This document shows positions 1-31,435 of a DNA stretch of 38,198 nt, in pieces (within the stretch, counting starts at the first letter, position 1; each line of letters starts with the position of its first letter). The notes under the pieces are model-generated. The model was not told the DNA's origin and did no database searches. It saw only the letters and a program-made list of their open reading frames with translations. The stretch spans positions 12,723 to 50,920 of the forward strand of contig MHKJ01000034.1 in assembly GCA_001818355.1 (NCBI GenBank), in the 5' to 3' direction. A program made the position numbers and the translations under genes. The DNA is from Candidatus Kerfeldbacteria bacterium RIFOXYC2_FULL_38_9. Lineage in GTDB: Bacteria > Patescibacteriota > Patescibacteriia > UBA9570 > XYC2-FULL-38-9.

Positions 1-10
1 TAAGTGTTTG

Positions 11-47
11 CTAACGCAACGGTAATGGCGCGAACGATGTGCGAAAT
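11..47 (+). repeat. 37-nt intergenic element, copy A (CTAACGCAAC-N9-GCGAAC-GATGTGCGAAAT)
   Basis: Same length and architecture as 28951..28987 and 30962..30998. Shares CGCAAC...GCGAACG with 29702..29738. Follows a TAA at 1..3 and ends 12 nt before ATG 60. Confidence 0.6.
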
Positions 48-59
48 AGTAAACTTTTT

Positions 60-566
60 ATGACAATGAACAAAGTTTTAATCATAGGGATAAGTGGAAC
101 AGGTAAAACAGGGTTGGCAAAAAAAATATCCGATTTTTTAAAAATTCCAGTCACCCATTATGACGAGTTTGTTTGGGATGAAAACTGGAATGAAGTGGAT
201 GAAAAAATAGTAGAGCAAAAATTGGAGGAGGTTATCAAAAAGGATGGGTGGATTATTGAGGGTTTTATACACCCAGCCGCTAAGAGCAAATTAAAAAATG
301 CTGACACTGTAATTTATTTAGATTATTCTGGCTGGCAAGCATTTTTGGGCGGTTTAAACAGGTGGTGGATATACCGAGGTAAAACAAGGCCGGAGATGGC
401 AGCTGGGTGTATTGAAGATTTTAACTGGAATTATTTAAAAGTCATGTGGAAACGTGCAGAAAGACAGGAAATTGAGGAAACAATCAAAGGATTTGAAAAT
501 AAAATGATTCGCCTAAAAACAAGAAGCGAGACGGATAATTTTCTTGCCAAACTGCTTGCGAAGTAA
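60..566 (+). CDS. Small P-loop NTPase, adenylate-kinase / topology-modulation (FlaR)-like
   Basis: ORF 39..566. Walker A GISGTGKTG follows directly after MNKVLIIG, so ATG 60 or 66 is a more likely start than 39. About 170 aa, typical of stand-alone AAA/adenylate-kinase-like proteins. Confidence 0.6.
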   Translation: MTMNKVLIIGISGTGKTGLAKKISDFLKIPVTHYDEFVWDENWNEVDEKIVEQKLEEVIKKDGWIIEGFIHPAAKSKLKNADTVIYLDYSGWQAFLGGLNRWWIYRGKTRPEMAAGCIEDFNWNYLKVMWKRAERQEIEETIKGFENKMIRLKTRSETDNFLAKLLAK

Positions 567-581
567 AAAGTTTACTACACC

Positions 582-718
582 GCACAACAGCCGATATGCG
601 GTTCAAGAAAAAGAATGATAAATATTTTCAGCGGATACTTTTTTCTCTCACCCATATTTCGCACAAATTTAATTTTTAAGGAGTGTGCGAAACATCGCAT
701 ATCGGCGTTAGACGAAAT
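582..718 (+). repeat. 137-nt imperfect palindrome, long form of the intergenic element family
   Basis: GCACAAC-A-GCCGATATGCG (582..600) pairs with CGCATATCGGC-GTTAGAC (696..713); the 11-bp arms are perfect. Nested hairpin TTTCGCACA (657..665) / TGTGCGAAA (684..692). Ends GTTAGACGAAAT like the other copies. Confidence 0.7.
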
Positions 719-3971: not shown

Positions 3972-4119
3972 CTTAATAAAGCAAAGGTTTGTGTAATTAT
4001 TTGTTGAAATTTTCCTAAAACATGATAAAAAAACACCTTGACGGTAAAGTTTGGAACGATAAGTAATTGGTTTTTTATTACACAAAAACTTTAGTGTTTC
4101 GTCTCTAACACTAATAAAT

Positions 4120-26272: not shown

Positions 26273-26335
26273 AAATTTCAGGTACACTTGAAATTTAGCA
26301 TTTTTTTTCATATATTTCAGGTACACTTGAAATTT
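26273..26335. promoter_or_regulatory. Two copies of a 22-bp palindromic box upstream of uvrB (candidate operator)
   Basis: ATTTCAGGTACACTTGAAATTT occurs at 26275..26296 and identically at 26314..26335, a 39-bp period. Each copy is an imperfect palindrome (AAATTTCA..GT..AC..TGAAATTT). The second copy ends 45 nt before ATG 26381. Confidence 0.6.
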
Positions 26336-26380
26336 TTATATATTTACTTGAAACGATTATGGTGTAAGGTATAACAAAAC

Positions 26381-28354: not shown

Positions 28355-28773
28355 AGAAAACGGTTTTAGTTTTCGGTACGTTTGATTTATTCCATCCGGG
28401 ACACCGATTTTTTTTGCAAGAAGCTAAAAAGCACGGTGATTTTTTAGTGGTGGTGGTGGCGCGAGATCAAAATGTAAAAAAAATAAAAGGAAAAAAACCA
28501 AACGAAGACGAGAAAACCAGAAGAAGCCTGGTCGCCAATTTTTCCGCAGTAGACAAGGCGATTTTAGGCTATCAAGACTGGAAAAAACACGAACAAGTTT
28601 TACAAGACATAAAACCAAATGTTGTTTGTTTAGGCTATGATCAGCAGGCAAAAATAGCGCCAGGCACCTGGGAAATAGTACGCCTACCATCTTTTCATCC
28701 GGAAAAATACAAAACCTCTCTTTTGGTTAAAAAAACCCCAAGAGAAGCTACCAAAAAAAATTTTCACAAATAG
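28351..28773 (+). CDS. Cytidylyltransferase-fold nucleotidyltransferase (RibL/TagD-like)
   Basis: VLVFGTFDLFHPGHRFFLQEAKKHGDFLVVVVARD carries the HxGH signature. 140 aa. Overlaps uvrB by 4 nt (ATGA). Confidence 0.7.
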
Positions 28774-28810
28774 ACCATAAGACGCTCTTGCCAACCAATA
28801 TTGAGTTCGC

Positions 28811-28913
28811 CTAACTACCTATATACCAGTCAACCCCACCACTGTGGATAATGGAGTTGATTTTGTTCTTGATAAGGCTTGTTGTTTTTCCAAACAGCCC
28901 TGTTGATTTTTAG
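28811..28913 (+). repeat. ~103-bp direct repeat, copy 1 (contains a terminator-like hairpin)
   Basis: Hand alignment to 30826..30926 gives 9 mismatches plus a 2-nt indel; the last 53 nt differ at 1 position. Preceded by and overlapping GCCTAAC (28809..28815). Hairpin AAGGCT..AGCCC(T) with a T-rich tail at about 28874..28910. Confidence 0.85.
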
Positions 28914-28950
28914 TTTTTTGTTAGCTAAAATTTAAGGTATGATACAGGAG

Positions 28951-28987
28951 TTAACGTAACACTAGTGGTGCGGGCGTTATCGGAAAT
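28951..28987 (+). repeat. 37-nt intergenic element, copy B (TTAACGTAACACTAGTGGTGCGGGCGTTATCGGAAAT)
   Basis: Same 37-nt architecture as copies A and C. The ends TTAACG / CGTTAT are near reverse complements. Ends 26 nt before ATG 29014. Confidence 0.6.
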
Positions 28988-29013
28988 TTCATTAATAATT
29001 TACTTTTATCAAT

Positions 29014-29646
29014 ATGGTTTCAGAAAATTCATTATCACCCTTGTATCAATTTATTCAAGAAGTACAAAAATTAAAGTATATTGATAGAGCGGTTTTGGCA
29101 ACTGAGAGCAGGAAAGAAAGTTCTGCAGAACATTGTTGGTCAGTTGGAGTTATTGTATGGTTTTTGTCAGATGCTTGGAAAAAAGAATTTAATACTGACA
29201 TTGATGTAAACAAAATCATTAAGATGGCTTTAATGCATGACATTATCGAAGTTCGGGTTGGTGATGTTTCGGTTTGGGACAAAAAAAAGAGATTACAGAT
29301 TGAACAGAAGGAGAGGGACGGCTTTATGTCTATCATAAGTACTCTGCCAACTTCTTTACAGACAGAATTGGCATCATTATGGAATGAATTACAAGAAGGA
29401 CAAACTCTGGAAAGTAAAATGGTGAGTGGTGCTGATAGGTTAAGCGCTGCTATCCAACGTTTGATTACTAAACAAGGCTGGGTCACAGAAGGTCATAATG
29501 AAAAGGATTTGGATGGTATTCAATTACCAAAAATAAACTTTAGCAAAGTTCTCCTTTCTTTCTATAATGAAATAAAACAAGAATCGTTTAATAACGGTTT
29601 ATTAGAAAAATCCTCATCTGATGAAATTTCCGATAACAGCAAATAA
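29014..29646 (+). CDS. HD-domain phosphohydrolase, YfbR-like 5'-deoxynucleotidase family
   Basis: LKYIDRAV...ESSAEHCWSVGVIV...MALMHDIIEVRVGDV...GADRLSAAIQ fits the H...HD...D metal-ligand pattern and spacing of the YfbR/HD_3 group. Confidence 0.7.
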   Translation: MVSENSLSPLYQFIQEVQKLKYIDRAVLATESRKESSAEHCWSVGVIVWFLSDAWKKEFNTDIDVNKIIKMALMHDIIEVRVGDVSVWDKKKRLQIEQKERDGFMSIISTLPTSLQTELASLWNELQEGQTLESKMVSGADRLSAAIQRLITKQGWVTEGHNEKDLDGIQLPKINFSKVLLSFYNEIKQESFNNGLLEKSSSDEISDNSK

Positions 29647-29664
29647 ACGCAATTGCTTCACATC

Positions 29665-29738
29665 GGTTGTGATGTTATGCTAACTTTATCACAACCTTGT
29701 TTCGCAACTGGTGTTTACCTGCGAACGTTAGGTGAAAT
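29665..29738 (+). repeat. Intergenic element, copy D, with an extra perfect hairpin
   Basis: GGTTGTGAT (29665..29673) / ATCACAACC (29688..29696) with CTAAC in the loop (29680..29684). Then CGCAAC-N12-GCGAAC-GTTAGGTGAAAT (29703..29738). TTCGCA/TGCGAA inner stem. Ends 16 nt before ATG 29755. Confidence 0.65.
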
Positions 29739-29754
29739 TTCTAAAAAATTATTT

Positions 29755-30369
29755 ATGAACAAGCTGGAAAAATTTATTATCAATCCAACAAATGAATTTC
29801 ATATTCTTAGGCACTTTAGATATGTAGATGATTACTACAAAAAAACTCTTATTGGACAACTATATTGGTTTTATGACTACGGTCAAAAGAAGTTTGTTTC
29901 TTCGAAAATTTCGCAAATTGACATTGAAAATGCTCTAAAAACAATCGGCACTAAATTTGAAAAAAATATTATTGGTATTGAATCCCCAAAAAAACCACTA
30001 GAAATAATCAAGAATAGATTTCAAGAATTACTATCGAACAACAAAATTTATTGGATTGATAATCTCGAATACAAAACTATTGCATTTACATTTGATTACC
30101 AATTTTTTGTGGGCCAAATGAATTGTTTAAATAAGGATAGTATTCTTGAAAGAGACAAAAACCGAATCAAGCCGGTTTTGAAAAGTAAATGTGCAGGAGA
30201 AAATGCAGTTATTGTAAATACTATTTCCGACATAGAATTATCTTCTACAAAATCAATCCATGTAGAAATCGTTGAAACAAAACAACTACCGTTTTACACA
30301 ATAACCGCATTTCCAGATTGTTCACTTTCAGATGACATTCCAGATGAAAATATTGTTTTTGTAGTATAA
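29755..30369 (+). CDS. Hypothetical 204-aa protein (orphan)
   Basis: ORF 29653..30369 opens at TTG inside the palindromic element, so ATG 29755 (MNKLEKF) is preferred. No family recognised. Confidence 0.5.
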   Translation: MNKLEKFIINPTNEFHILRHFRYVDDYYKKTLIGQLYWFYDYGQKKFVSSKISQIDIENALKTIGTKFEKNIIGIESPKKPLEIIKNRFQELLSNNKIYWIDNLEYKTIAFTFDYQFFVGQMNCLNKDSILERDKNRIKPVLKSKCAGENAVIVNTISDIELSSTKSIHVEIVETKQLPFYTITAFPDCSLSDDIPDENIVFVV

Positions 30370-30413
30370 TTTTTTAGAAACACCACATACACATCTTCAC
30401 ATTAAGTCAAAAT

Positions 30414-30425
30414 GTTAGGTGTAAT
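30414..30425 (+). repeat. Right-end motif of the intergenic element (GTTAGGTGTAAT)
   Basis: 11/12 identical to GTTAGGTGAAAT at 29727..29738. Ends 14 nt before ATG 30440. Confidence 0.5.
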
Positions 30426-30439
30426 TTTTTCCTTTAACC

Positions 30440-30829
30440 ATGAAAGATATAATAATTAAAAAATCAGAAAAGCATTGCCGCGGCGTTTTTGTTGCTAGAA
30501 ATTTTAAAAAAGGCGAAATAGTTGTTCCTTGGGTAGTCAAAAAAATTCTTGATAAGCAAGAATTATCATCATTAACACAGCAAGAAAAAGAATATGTTTC
30601 AAAAAGAGAGGACGGCAAATATGTTTTGTTTGCAGAGCCTGCCTGTTGCGTTAATCATTCTTGCGATCCAAACACAAAATCAGAAAACAATGCCAATGTA
30701 GCAATACGAGATATTAAAAAAGGTGAGGAAATCACCACGGATTATGAATTAGAAGGAGCGCTAAACAAATTTAAGTGTTCTTGCGGTAGCAAAAATTGCA
30801 GAGGCTCAATCGGAGAAAATTACATCTAA
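30440..30829 (+). CDS. Minimal SET-domain protein (putative lysine methyltransferase) with post-SET Cys cluster
   Basis: GRGVFA-like CRGVFVARNFKKGEIV, NHSCDPN, GEEITTDY, and C-terminal FKCSCGSKNCRG (CxCx4C post-SET). 129 aa. Confidence 0.8.
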   Translation: MKDIIIKKSEKHCRGVFVARNFKKGEIVVPWVVKKILDKQELSSLTQQEKEYVSKREDGKYVLFAEPACCVNHSCDPNTKSENNANVAIRDIKKGEEITTDYELEGALNKFKCSCGSKNCRGSIGENYI

Positions 30830-30926
30830 CTATCCATATACCAATCAACCTCACCACCGCGGATAAGGGTTAATTTTGTTCTTGATAAGGCTTGTTGTTT
30901 TTCCAAACAGCCTTGTTGATTTTTAG
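30826..30926 (+). repeat. ~103-bp direct repeat, copy 2 (contains a terminator-like hairpin)
   Basis: Starts within the stop codon region of the SET gene (ATCTAAC 30824..30830). Hairpin AAGGCT(T)GTT / AAC-AGCCTT at 30887..30914, followed by GTTGATTTTT. Confidence 0.85.
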
Positions 30927-30961
30927 CTTGGTTGTGGTATTTTTAAGATACTTTATTTATT

Positions 30962-30998
30962 CTAACGCAATACTGGCGCTAGAAACGTTGGGTAAAAT
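30962..30998 (+). repeat. 37-nt intergenic element, copy C (CTAACGCAATACTGGCGCTAGAAACGTTGGGTAAAAT)
   Basis: Ends CTAACG / CGTTGG (5 of 6 complementary), with a central near-palindrome CTGGCGCTAG. Ends 24 nt before ATG 31023. Confidence 0.6.
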
Positions 30999-31022
30999 TA
31001 ATTTTAGTAAAACCACAAAACT

Positions 31023-31394
31023 ATGCTGGTTGTTAAAACAAAGATAAAAGAAATAAACGGAAAGGGGATCGGCTTAATTGCTGATCAAGAAATTAAAAAA
31101 GGTCAACCAACCTGGGTTTTTAATTCCGTTATTGATATAAAAGTTAACAAAAAAGACATTCCTAAATTTGCAAAAGAATTTTTTGAAACGTATGCTGTTG
31201 ATATAGGAAAAGACTATGTTTATTTAAATATAGACAATGCCAGGTTTAAAAATCATTCCAACAATCCAAACACAAAAAGCCTCGGGTTATACAAAGACAA
31301 CATTGCTACAAGAGACATTCATGTCGGAGAAGAAATTACCATTGATTATAACGAAATTGATGTAAACGGAGTTGATTTTAATACTGAAAATTAA
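31023..31394 (+). CDS. Minimal SET-domain protein, second divergent copy (no post-SET cysteines)
   Basis: GKGIGLIADQEIKKGQ, RFKNHSNNPN (NHS.xPN), GEEITIDY. 123 aa. Confidence 0.7.
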   Translation: MLVVKTKIKEINGKGIGLIADQEIKKGQPTWVFNSVIDIKVNKKDIPKFAKEFFETYAVDIGKDYVYLNIDNARFKNHSNNPNTKSLGLYKDNIATRDIHVGEEITIDYNEIDVNGVDFNTEN

Positions 31395-31402
31395 GTTATT
31401 CA

Positions 31403-31435
31403 GCCTAACTTGACGAAGCAAAGGAAAGGTGAGAT
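31403..31435 (+). repeat. Degenerate copy of the intergenic element (GCCTAAC-N18-GGTGAGAT)
   Basis: GCCTAAC as at 28809. GGTGAGAT resembles GGTGAAAT of copy D. Ends 13 nt before ATG 31449. Confidence 0.4.

Follow-up and report, generated by a model that had tools for sequence, protein, structure and literature searches.

A probable integron-type gene-cassette array lacking an adjacent integrase on a Candidatus Kerfeldbacteria chromosome

Results

Four probable gene cassettes between the uvrB operon and the 1135-aa gene

The segment 28809-31435, located between the uvrB operon and a gene for a 1135-aa protein, is probably a sedentary gene-cassette array of integron type with no integrase next to it ('CALIN'). 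It lies within a 38,198-nt stretch (the window) of the chromosome of Candidatus Kerfeldbacteria (CPR), a small-genome groundwater bacterium. Four cassettes were identified, carrying genes for an HD nucleotidase, an orphan protein and two SET-domain proteins (SET1 and SET2), and in each a short leader and a single ORF are followed by a 3' attC-like site (Table 1). The cassettes are 440-750 bp in size with accessory cargo, and as in integron cassettes every ORF is on the same strand as R''...R'. The order within a cassette site is R'' (RYYYAAC) at the stop codon, L'' arm, variable centre, L' arm, GAAC spacer and R' (GTTRRRY). The original prediction of an integron-cassette-like array was partly supported: its RYYYAAC/GTTRRRY logic of the attC type and its one gene per module stood, but its anatomy did not, the sites being whole spacers of about 40 to 185 nt. 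For most sites this removes the objection, raised with the prediction, that they are shorter than canonical attC. The bounded modules are four and not the five predicted; the 1135-aa gene is not a cassette, being preceded by a degenerate site (GAAAGGT at 31424) and followed by no site at all.

SET2 is 35% identical to SET1 (BLASTP), and the 204-aa orphan protein matched no family in the Pfam search. The start of the orphan ORF is best placed at ATG 29755; the starts that would lengthen it, TTG 29653 (ORF list) and ~29677 (public gene call), fall inside the preceding recombination site.

Table 1. Features of the two arrays (window coordinates; L008, left flank)
Feature	Position	Strand	Details
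First array site, 'c-type', long attC-like	28809..28982	+	R'' GCCTAAC 28809-28815
Conserved core, ~106 nt	28811-28916	+	includes terminator-like hairpin with T-run, ~28874-28913
37-nt element	28951-28987	+	R' GTTATCG 28976-28982; GAAAT 28983-28987
Cassette 1, HD_3 / YfbR-like 5'-deoxynucleotidase	28977..29727	+	TT of R' to G of next R'; ORF 29014-29646; Pfam HD_3 1.5e-31
attC of HD cassette	29621..29738	+	boxes, folds, CM match at 29627-29738
Extension and R''	29621-29637		ATGAAATTTC-CGATAAC
L''	29638-29656		AGCAAATAAACGCAATTGC
Variable hairpin	29665-29696		9 bp
L'	29704-29722		GCAACTGGTGTTTACCTGC
Spacer	29723-29726		GAAC
R'	29727-29733		GTTAGGT; GAAAT 29734-29738
Cassette 2, orphan protein	29728..30414	+	ORF 29755-30369
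attC of orphan cassette, short and degenerate	30366..30425	+	extension ATAATTTTTTAGAAA 30366-30380; degenerate R'' (..CACATAC) ~30381-30390; R' GTTAGGT 30414-30420; GTAAT 30421-30425
Cassette 3, SET-domain protein 1	30415..30987	+	ORF 30440-30829; Pfam SET 7e-14
attC-like site of SET1, c-type	30812..30998	+	extension and R'' GGAGAAAATTAC-ATCTAAC 30812-30830, overlapping stop codon; conserved core 30826-30929; 37-nt element 30962-30998; R' GTTGGGT 30987-30993; AAAAT 30994-30998
Cassette 4, SET-domain protein 2	30988..31424	+	ORF 31023-31394; Pfam SET 4e-10
Terminal site, truncated; array end	31382..31435	+	R'' GCCTAAC 31403-31409; after 14 nt, degenerate R' GAAAGGT 31424-31430; GAGAT 31431-31435
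Second array, right part	1..718	+	array starts in left flank, L008:8742
Element of second array	11-47		mutated R' GATGTGC 36-42
P-loop kinase-like cassette	37-707	+	ORF 60-566
Canonical attC	578-718	+	R'' GCACAAC 582-588; L'' GCCGATATGCG 590-600; L' CGCATATCGGC 696-706; R' GTTAGAC 707-713; GAAAT 714-718
Left-flank cassettes			101-aa gene, PQ-loop gene; attC at L008:9198-9383

Anatomy of the repeated elements

Every sequence string reported in the prediction was confirmed in place. When up to two mismatches are allowed, the window contains 13 copies of the core GTTAGGTGAAAT, where 5.5 +/- 2.4 are expected, and none of 100 shuffles reached 13. Seven of the 13 copies lie in the two arrays, including those on the reverse strand at 28804-28815 and 30819-30830, which represent inverse cores. 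The inverse core RYYYAAC is located at or just past the preceding stop codon, and the predicted position of GCCTAAC (28809 and 31403) and ATCTAAC (30824) at or next to stop codons was correct.

The 37-nt units had been proposed to form hairpins, but alone they are not significant: DNA folds gave -2 to -7.6 kcal/mol, and z-scores for the three copies described as exactly 37 nt were +0.7, -1.0 and -0.3, with pairings varying among copies. Nor are these three independent elements, as they represent the 3' ends of three homologous spacers of 170-340 nt (28809-28987, 30824-30998 and L008:9657-10000). Each 37-nt element forms the right-hand end (L'-spacer-R', ..GAAC-GTTAGGT followed by conserved GAAAT) of a spacer-filling attC-like site. 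Two cassettes meet within the motif CGTTRGGTGAAAT: up to G it belongs to the attC of the upstream cassette, and TTRGGTGAAAT... is the start of the next. The first array site is homologous to 30824-30998 (89% over 106 nt and 95% over 61 nt) and also to L008:9657-10000. Folding of the SET1 site predicted stems for both the R box and the L box and, between L' and R', a further local hairpin, TTCTAACGC/GCGCTAGAA.

Another array of this kind is located 28 kb away, at the left edge of the window. Its canonical attC, 578-718, folds on the bottom strand into a long imperfect stem (-26.2 kcal/mol).

The attC family and covariation of its helices

Through a common 18-mer, a Peregrinibacteria MAG (L019/L034) was reached, in which single short ORFs are separated by 9-10 textbook sites such as GCCTAAC-A-AGCACTATGCG ... 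CGCATAGTGCT-GAAC-GTTAGAT. A family covariance model (CM R1) was trained on seven Peregrinibacteria sites plus two from the left end of the window, including 578-718. This model matched 29627-29738, which is not a training sequence, with 33.4 bits (E = 5.5e-6 for 210 kb and 1.2e-7 locally), but the other four of the five array sites were not recognised. The long c-type sites 28809-28982 (4 bits) and 30824-30993 (SET1) scored at noise level; between L' and R', both carry a non-canonical insert of ~35 nt that has a hairpin of its own, and both also contain the internal terminator-like hairpin. The orphan attC gave 10.4-12 bits, which is not significant, and is identified by its boxes and own-end pairing. 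The terminal site has neither a CM match nor a stable fold (-3.3 kcal/mol). Across ~55 kb of flanking housekeeping DNA, no other match was obtained.

The R-box and L-box helices covary, with compensatory changes in 9 of 20 pairs in the nine-site alignment. Among 29 sites, 83% of cells are paired versus 68% in shuffles, and double-change cells number 86 versus 30 (0/500 shuffles reach 86); slid controls gave 21-36% paired. The family consensus, CATC-R-N-M-TAAC-A ... R-AAC-GTTAG-R-Y-GAAAT, fits RYYYAAC/GTTRRRY, and GAAAT beside R' is kept in 22-28 of the 29 members, depending on position. Arrays of the same family elsewhere carry cargo typical of cassettes, such as Cass2/GyrI-like proteins, CutA1 and methyltransferases. 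Homologues of the SET-domain cargo occur in DPANN archaea and in CPR; in other CPR genomes they are ordinary genes without such sites.

These data bear on the possibility that the repeats are REP/BIME- or MITE-like palindromes, single genes with terminal inverted repeats moved by a transposase (e.g. RAYT/HUH), or bidirectional terminators. Inverted repeats of 17-27 bp with the conserved core GTTAGGTGAAAT / ATTTCACCTAAC indeed flank each ORF, no integrase is nearby, and the c-type spacers have a terminator-like hairpin with T-run in which a compensatory change (GGCTTG/CAGCC to GGATTG/CAATCC) preserves the stem. Outside the core, however, the inverted repeats of different modules are not alike, which argues for selection on pairing and not on a transposase-binding sequence. 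Unlike REPs, the sites all have one orientation relative to genes, and the inter-module segment (L''-centre-L') is a covarying hairpin adjoining the R boxes, the exact architecture of attC. T-runs are absent from most sites, and no transposase or RAYT is among the annotated genes. We regard mobile or terminator palindromes as very improbable.

Position of the elements relative to genes

As predicted, the strong copies are all on the + strand, and a small accessory ORF begins 13-26 nt after each, or 120 nt after in the case of copy B. None of them precedes any of the ~40 housekeeping genes, which have ordinary TTGACA/TATAAT-like promoters. A dedicated promoter plus palindromic operator, common to the accessory genes, was named with the prediction as a serious alternative. 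In this reading a regulon of small accessory genes would share either a promoter for an alternative sigma factor or one of ECF type (xxAAC-N16-19-CGTT), or an operator whose palindromes bind a regulator. Such signals would account for the constant position before the start codon on the coding strand, and for the GAAAT beside R', for which the integron model has no need; GCAAC-N17-CGTT of copies D and H also resembles the ECF -35/-10 spacing. The AAC-to-CGTT gap, however, differs among copies (12, 14, 17 and 19 nt), and in the family as a whole the start codon follows GAAAT at anything from 12 to ~65 nt. No sigma-70-like match was found at the elements, and the regional total was below the shuffle expectation. 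Left unexplained are the long-range, module-specific complementarity of each leader to sequence past its own stop codon, the L''/L' covariation, and the same 100-140-nt sites that were found in different phyla and phage-like contigs. Shared expression signals are thus disfavoured, and we consider them very improbable.

Pairing of each cassette with its own 5' end

The first 17-27 nt of a cassette, counted from GTT of R', pair with its own R'' region 0.4-0.7 kb downstream, and the partner changes at the G of R'. Such pairing from GTT is expected if cassettes form circles by crossover at G|TT. The p value was at most 0.0005 for the PQ, AAA, HD, orphan and SET1 cassettes, and 0.014 for SET2; in the second array, the pairing at 564-586 gave p = 0.0005. 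For HD, 28976-28992 is complementary to 29621-29637 over 17 nt (100%, p = 0.0005), and R' at 28976 is the partner of the cassette's own R''. For the orphan cassette, 29729-29752 is complementary to 30366-30389 with 15 nt perfect (p = 0.0005), and for SET1, 30414-30432 pairs with 30812-30830 at 17 of 19 positions (p = 0.0005). In folds of the circular junction, attC with its own 5' end was more stable than with any other by 4.6-10.8 kcal/mol in five of six cases, for instance -35.1 versus -24.3 kcal/mol or weaker for HD, -14.3 versus -5.3 or weaker for the orphan and -22.7 versus -18.1 or weaker for SET1. The pairing of SET2 (31382-31397) is weaker, and its own end was not the top partner. Own-end preference was also observed in seven of nine cases in the Peregrinibacteria array.

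That the complementarity acts in RNA, with 5'/3' pairing controlling stability or translation of monocistronic mRNA and the attC likeness incidental, fits the location of the paired segments in the 5' leader and right after the stop codon, both within the mRNA if each module is transcribed alone, but is the least probable reading, since there is no evidence of monocistronic transcripts, the partner changes exactly at the G of GTTRRRY, a landmark of DNA recombination, and classical class 1 cassettes show the same, shorter pairing.

By analogy with integrons, a tyrosine recombinase would act on the folded bottom strand of the attC-like sites, strand exchange would take place between G and TT, and the cassette would be excised as a circle, its own 5' end closing the attC hairpin.

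Search for a recombinase

The prediction noted no integrase in the window, and this agrees with a tblastn search using a validated IntI1 and a Xer-like query: no integron integrase or tyrosine recombinase was found in 58 kb around the array. The array is accordingly filed only as CALIN and not as an integron.

In three phage-like contigs, same-family attC arrays adjoin Xer-like recombinases without the integron-integrase insertion (L111:8001-9026, L114:10001-10834 and a homologue in L115); none of these is in the window. They contain SAM-like and catalytic domains with top scores on Xer-type models, and what connects them with the cassettes is their adjacent position.

Discussion

In IntegronFinder, the term CALIN denotes clustered attC sites without an integron integrase (Cury et al. 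2016; Neron et al. 2022, PMC9024848). The Kerfeldbacteria array resembles such clusters in having at least two co-oriented attC-type sites less than 4 kb apart between short, promoter-poor accessory ORFs, in its chromosomal location and in the lack of a nearby integrase. It differs in its CPR host, in that only one array site fits a family model, and in two sites of 170-175 nt that have an additional hairpin and a core resembling a terminator. In the literature library searched, no paper connected integrons with CPR phyla. Archaeal integrons were likewise described as arrays in MAGs of uncultivated lineages, mostly without detectable IntI (6 IntIs in 75 genomes; Ghaly et al. 2022, PMC9668308); the present host is a bacterium.

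As in sedentary chromosomal integrons whose attC repeats are homogeneous (e.g. Vibrio cholerae VCRs), attC sites of near-identical length and conserved sequence form long arrays in this family (six 104-nt sites in L111; 94-138-nt sites with common internal motifs in L034), and three spacers of the Kerfeldbacteria genome have a common core of ~106 nt. The Kerfeldbacteria arrays are however tiny (3-4 cassettes each), with heterogeneous site types and no intI/attI/Pc platform. With class 1 cassettes (59-base elements), the family has in common the RYYYAAC...GTTRRRY boxes, boundaries at G|TT and complementarity of the own 5' end to the inverse core. In the class 1 control locus (L039, intI1-blaVIM-blaOXA-10-aacA4), however, the own end pairs over 11-12 bp, versus 17-27 bp in the Kerfeldbacteria cassettes; the family CM does not match class 1 sites, and conserved GAAAT after R' is found only in the present family. 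The recombinases of L111, L114 and L115 resemble XerC/XerD-like and phage tyrosine integrases in domains and scores; they end in SPLD/SPVD as does IntI1, to which they are 32% identical, but are without the ~45-aa IntI-specific insertion.

All array-spanning contigs returned by three look-ups (several samples) have one gene order, with no presence/absence polymorphism seen, and the short contigs end at the 106-nt repeat. Since several boxes are degenerate (R' GTTATCG, R'' ..CACATAC and terminal GAAAGGT), the last site is truncated and the population is without structural polymorphism, the array of this CPR bacterium looks old and is possibly inactive.

Organization of the array

The array has the uvrB-cytidylyltransferase operon, which ends at 28773, on its left and a 1135-aa gene, with rpsT after it, on its right. 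Within 2.6 kb it carries five sites, all on the + strand, and four ORFs of 123-210 aa on the same strand, which encode an HD_3/YfbR-like nucleotidase (HD), one protein without family (orphan) and two SET-domain proteins (SET1 and SET2, 35% identical to each other). The five-module integron-like array of the original prediction was partly supported, as a cassette array of four cassettes; the 1135-aa gene is not a cassette. The sites bounding these cassettes are of unequal quality: one is typical of the family described below, one is short and degenerate, two are long (c-type, 28809-28982 and 30824-30993) and one is truncated. The array shows at least two co-oriented sites less than 4 kb apart, with the ORF sense strand corresponding to the R''-to-R' strand, as is used to define a CALIN, a cluster of attC sites without an integron integrase. 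The HD protein has an identical counterpart in Candidatus Kerfeldbacteria bacterium RIFOXYA2_FULL_38_24, of the Patescibacteria/Parcubacteria (CPR) group. For the orphan gene, longer ORFs starting at TTG 29653 (ORF list) or about 29677 (public gene call) both begin inside the attC site of the HD cassette; because the cassette boundary is at 29727/29728, the protein start was set at ATG 29755 (204 aa).

With about 10 kb added per side from the flanking contigs encoding window proteins (L008, left; L013, right), 58 kb of one genome was analyzed. A second array, with 101-aa, PQ-loop and P-loop kinase-like genes, starts at L008:8742 (to 9941) and ends at window position 718. As a possible R'' remnant of its last cassette, TTTCGTCTCTAAC at 4094-4110 was considered and rejected, its score being at chance level. 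This sequence sits just before the RNase Y start and is weakly complementary to the leader (cassette 5' end) located after the last attC of the left array, GTTAGACGAAAT.. at 707. A terminal 'cassette' of 3.4 kb with four genes might thus have left TTTCGTCTCTAAC as its orphaned inverse core. Upstream of uvrB (26281-26354), the 16-mer GGTACACTTGAAATTT is present twice (about 26281-26296 and 26320-26335) together with a partial third copy, TACTTGAAAC. These repeats could be a repeated operator of the uvrB operon, a candidate for the SOS/LexA type.

Features of the two arrays and of the arrays next to recombinases in phage-database contigs
Feature	Position	Strand	Remark
Cassette 1, HD	28977-29727	+	
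Cassette 2, orphan	29728-30414	+	
Cassette 3, SET1	30415-30987	+	
Cassette 4, SET2	30988 to ~31424	+	
R'' GCCTAAC	28809	+	fits RYYYAAC
R'' CGATAAC	29631	+	off consensus; complementary to own R'
R'' ..CACATAC	30384	+	degenerate
R'' ATCTAAC	30824	+	fits RYYYAAC
R'' GCCTAAC	31403	+	fits RYYYAAC
R' GTTATCG	28976	+	off consensus
R' GTTAGGT	29727 and 30414	+	fits GTTRRRY
R' GTTGGGT	30987	+	fits GTTRRRY
R' GAAAGGT	31424	+	off consensus
Left array, truncated first site	L008:8715-8748		ATATGCG..CGCATATAAACCA-GTTAGAT
Left array, 101-aa cassette			follows truncated site
Left array, canonical attC	L008:9203-9378		176 nt
Left array, PQ-loop/SWEET-like cassette			84 aa
Left array, c-type site			137-nt insertion
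Left array, P-loop kinase-like cassette (last)	window 37-707		
Left array, last attC	window 578-718		
Tyrosine recombinase, 341 aa	L111:8001-9026		then mini-site after 86 nt
Array and recombinase region	L111:8001-15651		
Array and recombinase region	L114:7791-10834		
Array and recombinase region	L115:9225-10840		

Identification of the motif as one end of an attC-like site

All motif strings quoted in the original prediction were present where it had placed them. With up to two mismatches, GTTAGGTGAAAT occurred 13 times in the window against 5.5 expected; the strong copies were all on the + strand and upstream of small accessory genes, and over the 58 kb the motif was restricted to the two arrays. 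The view of these elements as stand-alone 37-nt hairpins was not upheld: they folded no better than shuffled sequences (z near zero), with pairings that differed between copies, and the three copies of exactly 37 nt were found to be the ends of homologous spacers (28809-28987, 30824-30998 and one just left of the window).

An exact scan of genome contigs with the 18-mer common to two motif copies, GCGAACGTTAGGTGAAAT, gave matches in five genomes, which at first seemed chance-like; four of the five fell in attC-like arrays or sites. In a Peregrinibacteria MAG, six motif copies were found in 8 kb, at a locus where textbook attC sites separate single short ORFs. Each site consists of an inverse core (e.g. 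GCCTAAC), an unpaired A, a GC-rich L'' arm, about 90 variable nt, the complementary L' arm, GAAC, the core GTTAGAT and GAAAT. Because these sites end in L' arm, GAAC, core and GAAAT, the Kerfeldbacteria motif was identified as the L'-spacer-R' end of an attC site. A site of this kind surrounds one motif copy at 582-713 (GCACAAC-A-GCCGATATGCG ... CGCATATCGGC-GTTAGAC; bottom-strand fold of -26.2 kcal/mol), and a copy in the left flank (L008:9198-9383) is likewise part of such a site. A generic scan for AAC...GTT arm pairing also ranked 586-707 top, but was abandoned as the background in coding DNA swamped every threshold.

As to the attC box logic proposed at the outset, inverted R'' and R' boxes were found and the family consensus, CATC-R-N-M-TAAC-A ... 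R-AAC-GTTAG-R-Y-GAAAT, fits both, but several individual boxes deviate. Measured from R'' to R', the sites are 103 nt (HD), 132 nt (582-713), about 40 nt (orphan), 170-174 nt (c-type) and 28 nt (terminal) long; relative to the attC range of about 55-141 nt, the lengths are mixed, some canonical and others below or above it. Throughout the family, R and L boxes are separated by a conserved 1x4 internal loop (A versus GAAC), and on the bottom strand of the site at 582-713 one T is bulged out. These are candidate counterparts of the extrahelical T/G bases of canonical sites.

In the c-type sites, R'' lies at the stop codon, R' pairs with the next cassette's own end, and an extra segment of about 35 nt with a local hairpin is inserted between L' and R'. 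They share a conserved core of about 106 nt with a terminator-like hairpin and T-run, located at 28811-28916, 30826-30929 and L008:9665-9972 (identity 89% and about 74-78%). In the third copy, the hairpin loop is enlarged by a 137-nt insertion while a compensatory change keeps the stem. This core is a candidate terminator, insulator or part of the site. A sigma-70-like TTGATT-N17-TAAAAT (28903-28931) is present in the first c-type copy only (28809-28982). The 106-nt repeat accounts for the breaks of short-read assemblies near 28.9 and 30.9 kb; three short-read Logan contigs (L003, L004 and L014) end at it.

Pairing between the two ends of each cassette

The inverted-repeat list showed complementarity between each leader and the region of the stop codon of its own cassette: the HD leader (28976-28992) matches 29621-29637 at 17 of 17 positions, the orphan leader (29729-29752) pairs with 30366-30389, and the SET1 leader (30414-30432) with 30812-30830. 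In the shuffle test this own-end pairing gave p <= 0.0005 in five cassettes, two of them in the left array, and p = 0.014 for SET2; leaders of other cassettes always scored lower. For a folding test on the bottom strand, every attC was cut after the G of R' and fused in turn with the initial 28 nt of each cassette. The own leader was better than all others by 4.6-10.8 kcal/mol in five of six cassettes, and was the best in seven of nine cassettes of the independent Peregrinibacteria array. Pairing begins at G/TT of R' and never 5' of it, the upstream bases being paired with L'' of the same spacer. From this arrangement of the sequence we infer that the cassette boundary (crossover) lies between G and TT of R'. 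In integron cassettes, the cassette's own TTRRRY closes attC after excision, and the switch of leader pairing at G/TT of R' is a signature of such cassettes. Pairing of the 5' and 3' ends of each module at the RNA level would also concern the same two segments; it is possible but unnecessary.

Own-end pairing was also observed for a class 1 control (intI1-blaVIM-blaOXA-10-aacA4), but over 11-12 bp, whereas the stems of the present family are 17-27 bp long and include the whole leader with GAAAT. If confirmed, the length of the closing stems and the conservation of GAAAT, together with the c-type sites and the Xer-like neighbours described below, could mark a variant.

Covariance model of the attC family

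The model (R1) was built from an alignment (A3) of seven Peregrinibacteria and two Kerfeldbacteria sites, the consensus fold of which consists of an R helix and an L helix with compensatory changes in 9 of 20 pairs. This family model served as a substitute for the curated attC model of IntegronFinder. Searched against 210 kb, R1 detected the HD/orphan spacer (29627-29738; 33.4 bits, E = 5.5e-6), which was not in the training set, as well as sites in Gracilibacteria and Anaerobacillus MAGs. Without filters, the orphan spacer (30381-30425) was marginal, at 10-12 bits. Three of the five sites of the array were missed by the family model, both long c-type spacers being at noise level. The HD site aligns to both helices, and L pairing of the c-type sites was observed only in MFE folds. 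A search of 71 phage-database loci carrying a 15-mer of the motif yielded three further arrays. With a broader model (R2), again nothing was found in housekeeping DNA of the window, and the class 1 integron control likewise remained unmatched. Rfam, at gathering and E-value thresholds, gave two tRNAs and sub-threshold noise, with no attC match.

In an alignment of 29 sites, 83% of cells were paired; shuffled alignments reached 68% and slid controls 21-36%. Double-change cells numbered 86 against 30 expected. At the family level, the L helices showed compensatory changes in 5 of 5 and 5 of 7 pairs, and the covariation score was 0.365 versus 0.137 for shuffles.

A REP/MITE-like reading leaves both the single orientation and the covarying inter-module hairpin unaccounted for. 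The alternative raised in the original prediction, a promoter plus operator shared by a regulon of accessory genes, fails: the spacing from AAC to CGTT varies from 12 to 19 nt, the consensus scan gave no sigma-70-like match at the elements, and the strongest objections come from the module-specific pairing over long range and from the covariation of the L arms. Housekeeping genes of the window have upstream regions of the ordinary TTGACA/TATAAT type. SigB-like, ECF-like and extended -10 readings were discarded for inconsistent spacing and an empty consensus scan at the elements, and AGGTGA, at 17-31 nt from the start codons, is too distant for a Shine-Dalgarno sequence. The reading as attC sites explains the 'regulatory-looking' motif without a new promoter class.

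The Anaerobacillus sp. MAG (JAKFDP010000045.1, Bacillota) carries four same-family matches on one strand (L020:3915-7116), and RhuM and DUF6236 are among the cargo, as is a GyrI-like/Cass2 'integron-associated effector binding' protein. Since Bacillota are regarded as seldom carrying integron-type arrays, the binning of this MAG is provisional.

Search for a recombinase

The IntI1 query was validated by its score of 799 bits with the NCBIfam equivalog NF011946. By tblastn with IntI1 and Xer-like queries, no match was detected in the 58 kb, and Phage_integrase Pfam domains were absent from the precomputed gene tables, in agreement with the earlier observation that the window contains no integrase. 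The array thus differs from a complete integron, in which intI adjoins the array, by the absence of an intI gene within 58 kb.

With the same IntI1 query, a homologue was found beside a same-family array in the phage-database contig L111. Its gene is followed by the mini-site CATAAC-N16-GTTATGCGACAT (L111:9112-9150) and then by six co-oriented cassettes with 104-nt attC sites; the leader of the first cassette pairs with its own R''. In contig L114 and its 67%-identical relative L115, a 277-aa recombinase (L114:10001-10834) is divergent from the array, the nearest family-model site being about 320 nt (L114) or 670 nt (L115) from its start. Identity is 35% between the two recombinase types and 32% between them and IntI1. 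Both end in SPLD/SPVD, as does IntI1, but the IntI-specific insertion of about 45 residues is missing from them, and their scores are Xer-like. On the far side of the recombinase, L111 encodes a terminase small subunit and a tape-measure protein (Pfam), and L114 has phage-type genes as read from ORF translations alone. These recombinases may be prophage integrases that merely abut the arrays, and the link of a Xer-like recombinase to the cassettes is a lead, not a result.

Comparison with relatives

Gain or loss of single modules, a check set out in the original prediction, was not observed: in this species, one gene order is shared by every contig spanning the array. One contig (L005) was rejected as a cassette polymorphism: it has low coverage, diverges 15 nt past one of the motif elements and has unrelated sequence at both ends, one of them inside a gene, and was treated as a chimera. 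HD homologues of 61-64% identity occur in other contexts and are too divergent for breakpoint mapping. In metagenomes searched for cytidylyltransferase synteny, relatives were of at most 53% identity and none was syntenic, so that insertion breakpoints could not be mapped.

In a relative (L022:6500-10800), a 64%-identical HD gene belongs to a different co-oriented run, of NUDIX, Imm5-like, RidA, Ldh_2, a 63-aa gene, HD and DHH. Its spacers contain palindromes ending in CGAAAT/TGAAAT (e.g. AAACGGCGGAG...CTCTGCCGTTGGAATGAAAT), which are unmatched by the family model and may represent a different attC type.

Close homologues of the small SET cassette protein (46-71% identity) are widespread in CPR and also occur in DPANN (Woesearchaeota, Diapherotrites); elsewhere they are mostly ordinary chromosomal genes. 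Around SET homologues in four CPR genome contigs (L035-L037 and L112), no family attC sites were found, decayed remnants being seen in L112 only. In this relative (Ca. Kerfeldbacteria CG_4_10), the remnants lie between small co-oriented genes (L112:7069-7853) and consist of AACATCGCCTCCGCGCCAGAC-GTTAGAT-GGAAT and, directly after a stop codon, CATCTAAC, both below the model threshold. The Kerfeldbacteria array is best seen as sedentary and partly decayed.

Implications for CPR bacteria

CALINs are common in bacteria. We file the Kerfeldbacteria array as a probable further case of this known kind, in a CPR host. In the literature searched, of which coverage was incomplete, we found neither integrons nor attC sites described for CPR phyla.

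The CATCNNCTAAC...GAAC-GTTAGGTGAAAT family was seen in Kerfeldbacteria, Peregrinibacteria, Gracilibacteria, a Bacillota MAG and phage-like contigs. We consider it rather unlikely that this family forms a separate integron lineage with an IntI-related Xer-like recombinase devoid of the IntI-specific insertion and often beside phage genes. If true, standard tools would label every such array as an orphan CALIN, the 17-27-bp closing stem and GAAAT might replace structural cues read by the missing IntI domain, and the accessory genes of CPR would come out of a pool of cassettes that phages and other phyla share. Should the lead on the Xer-like recombinase hold, many arrays now classed as integrase-less would need re-reading.

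CPR bacteria have genomes of roughly 1 Mb, in which mobile elements are usually said to be scarce. The presence of two arrays in 58 kb implies that integron-type gene capture contributed to CPR accessory content, in this case genes for a nucleotidase, SET-domain proteins, a transporter and a kinase-like protein. Three CPR phyla, a Bacillota MAG and phage-like contigs all contain this one sequence-conserved attC family. A cassette pool common to them is indicated, and the covariance model provides a concrete marker with which to trace it.
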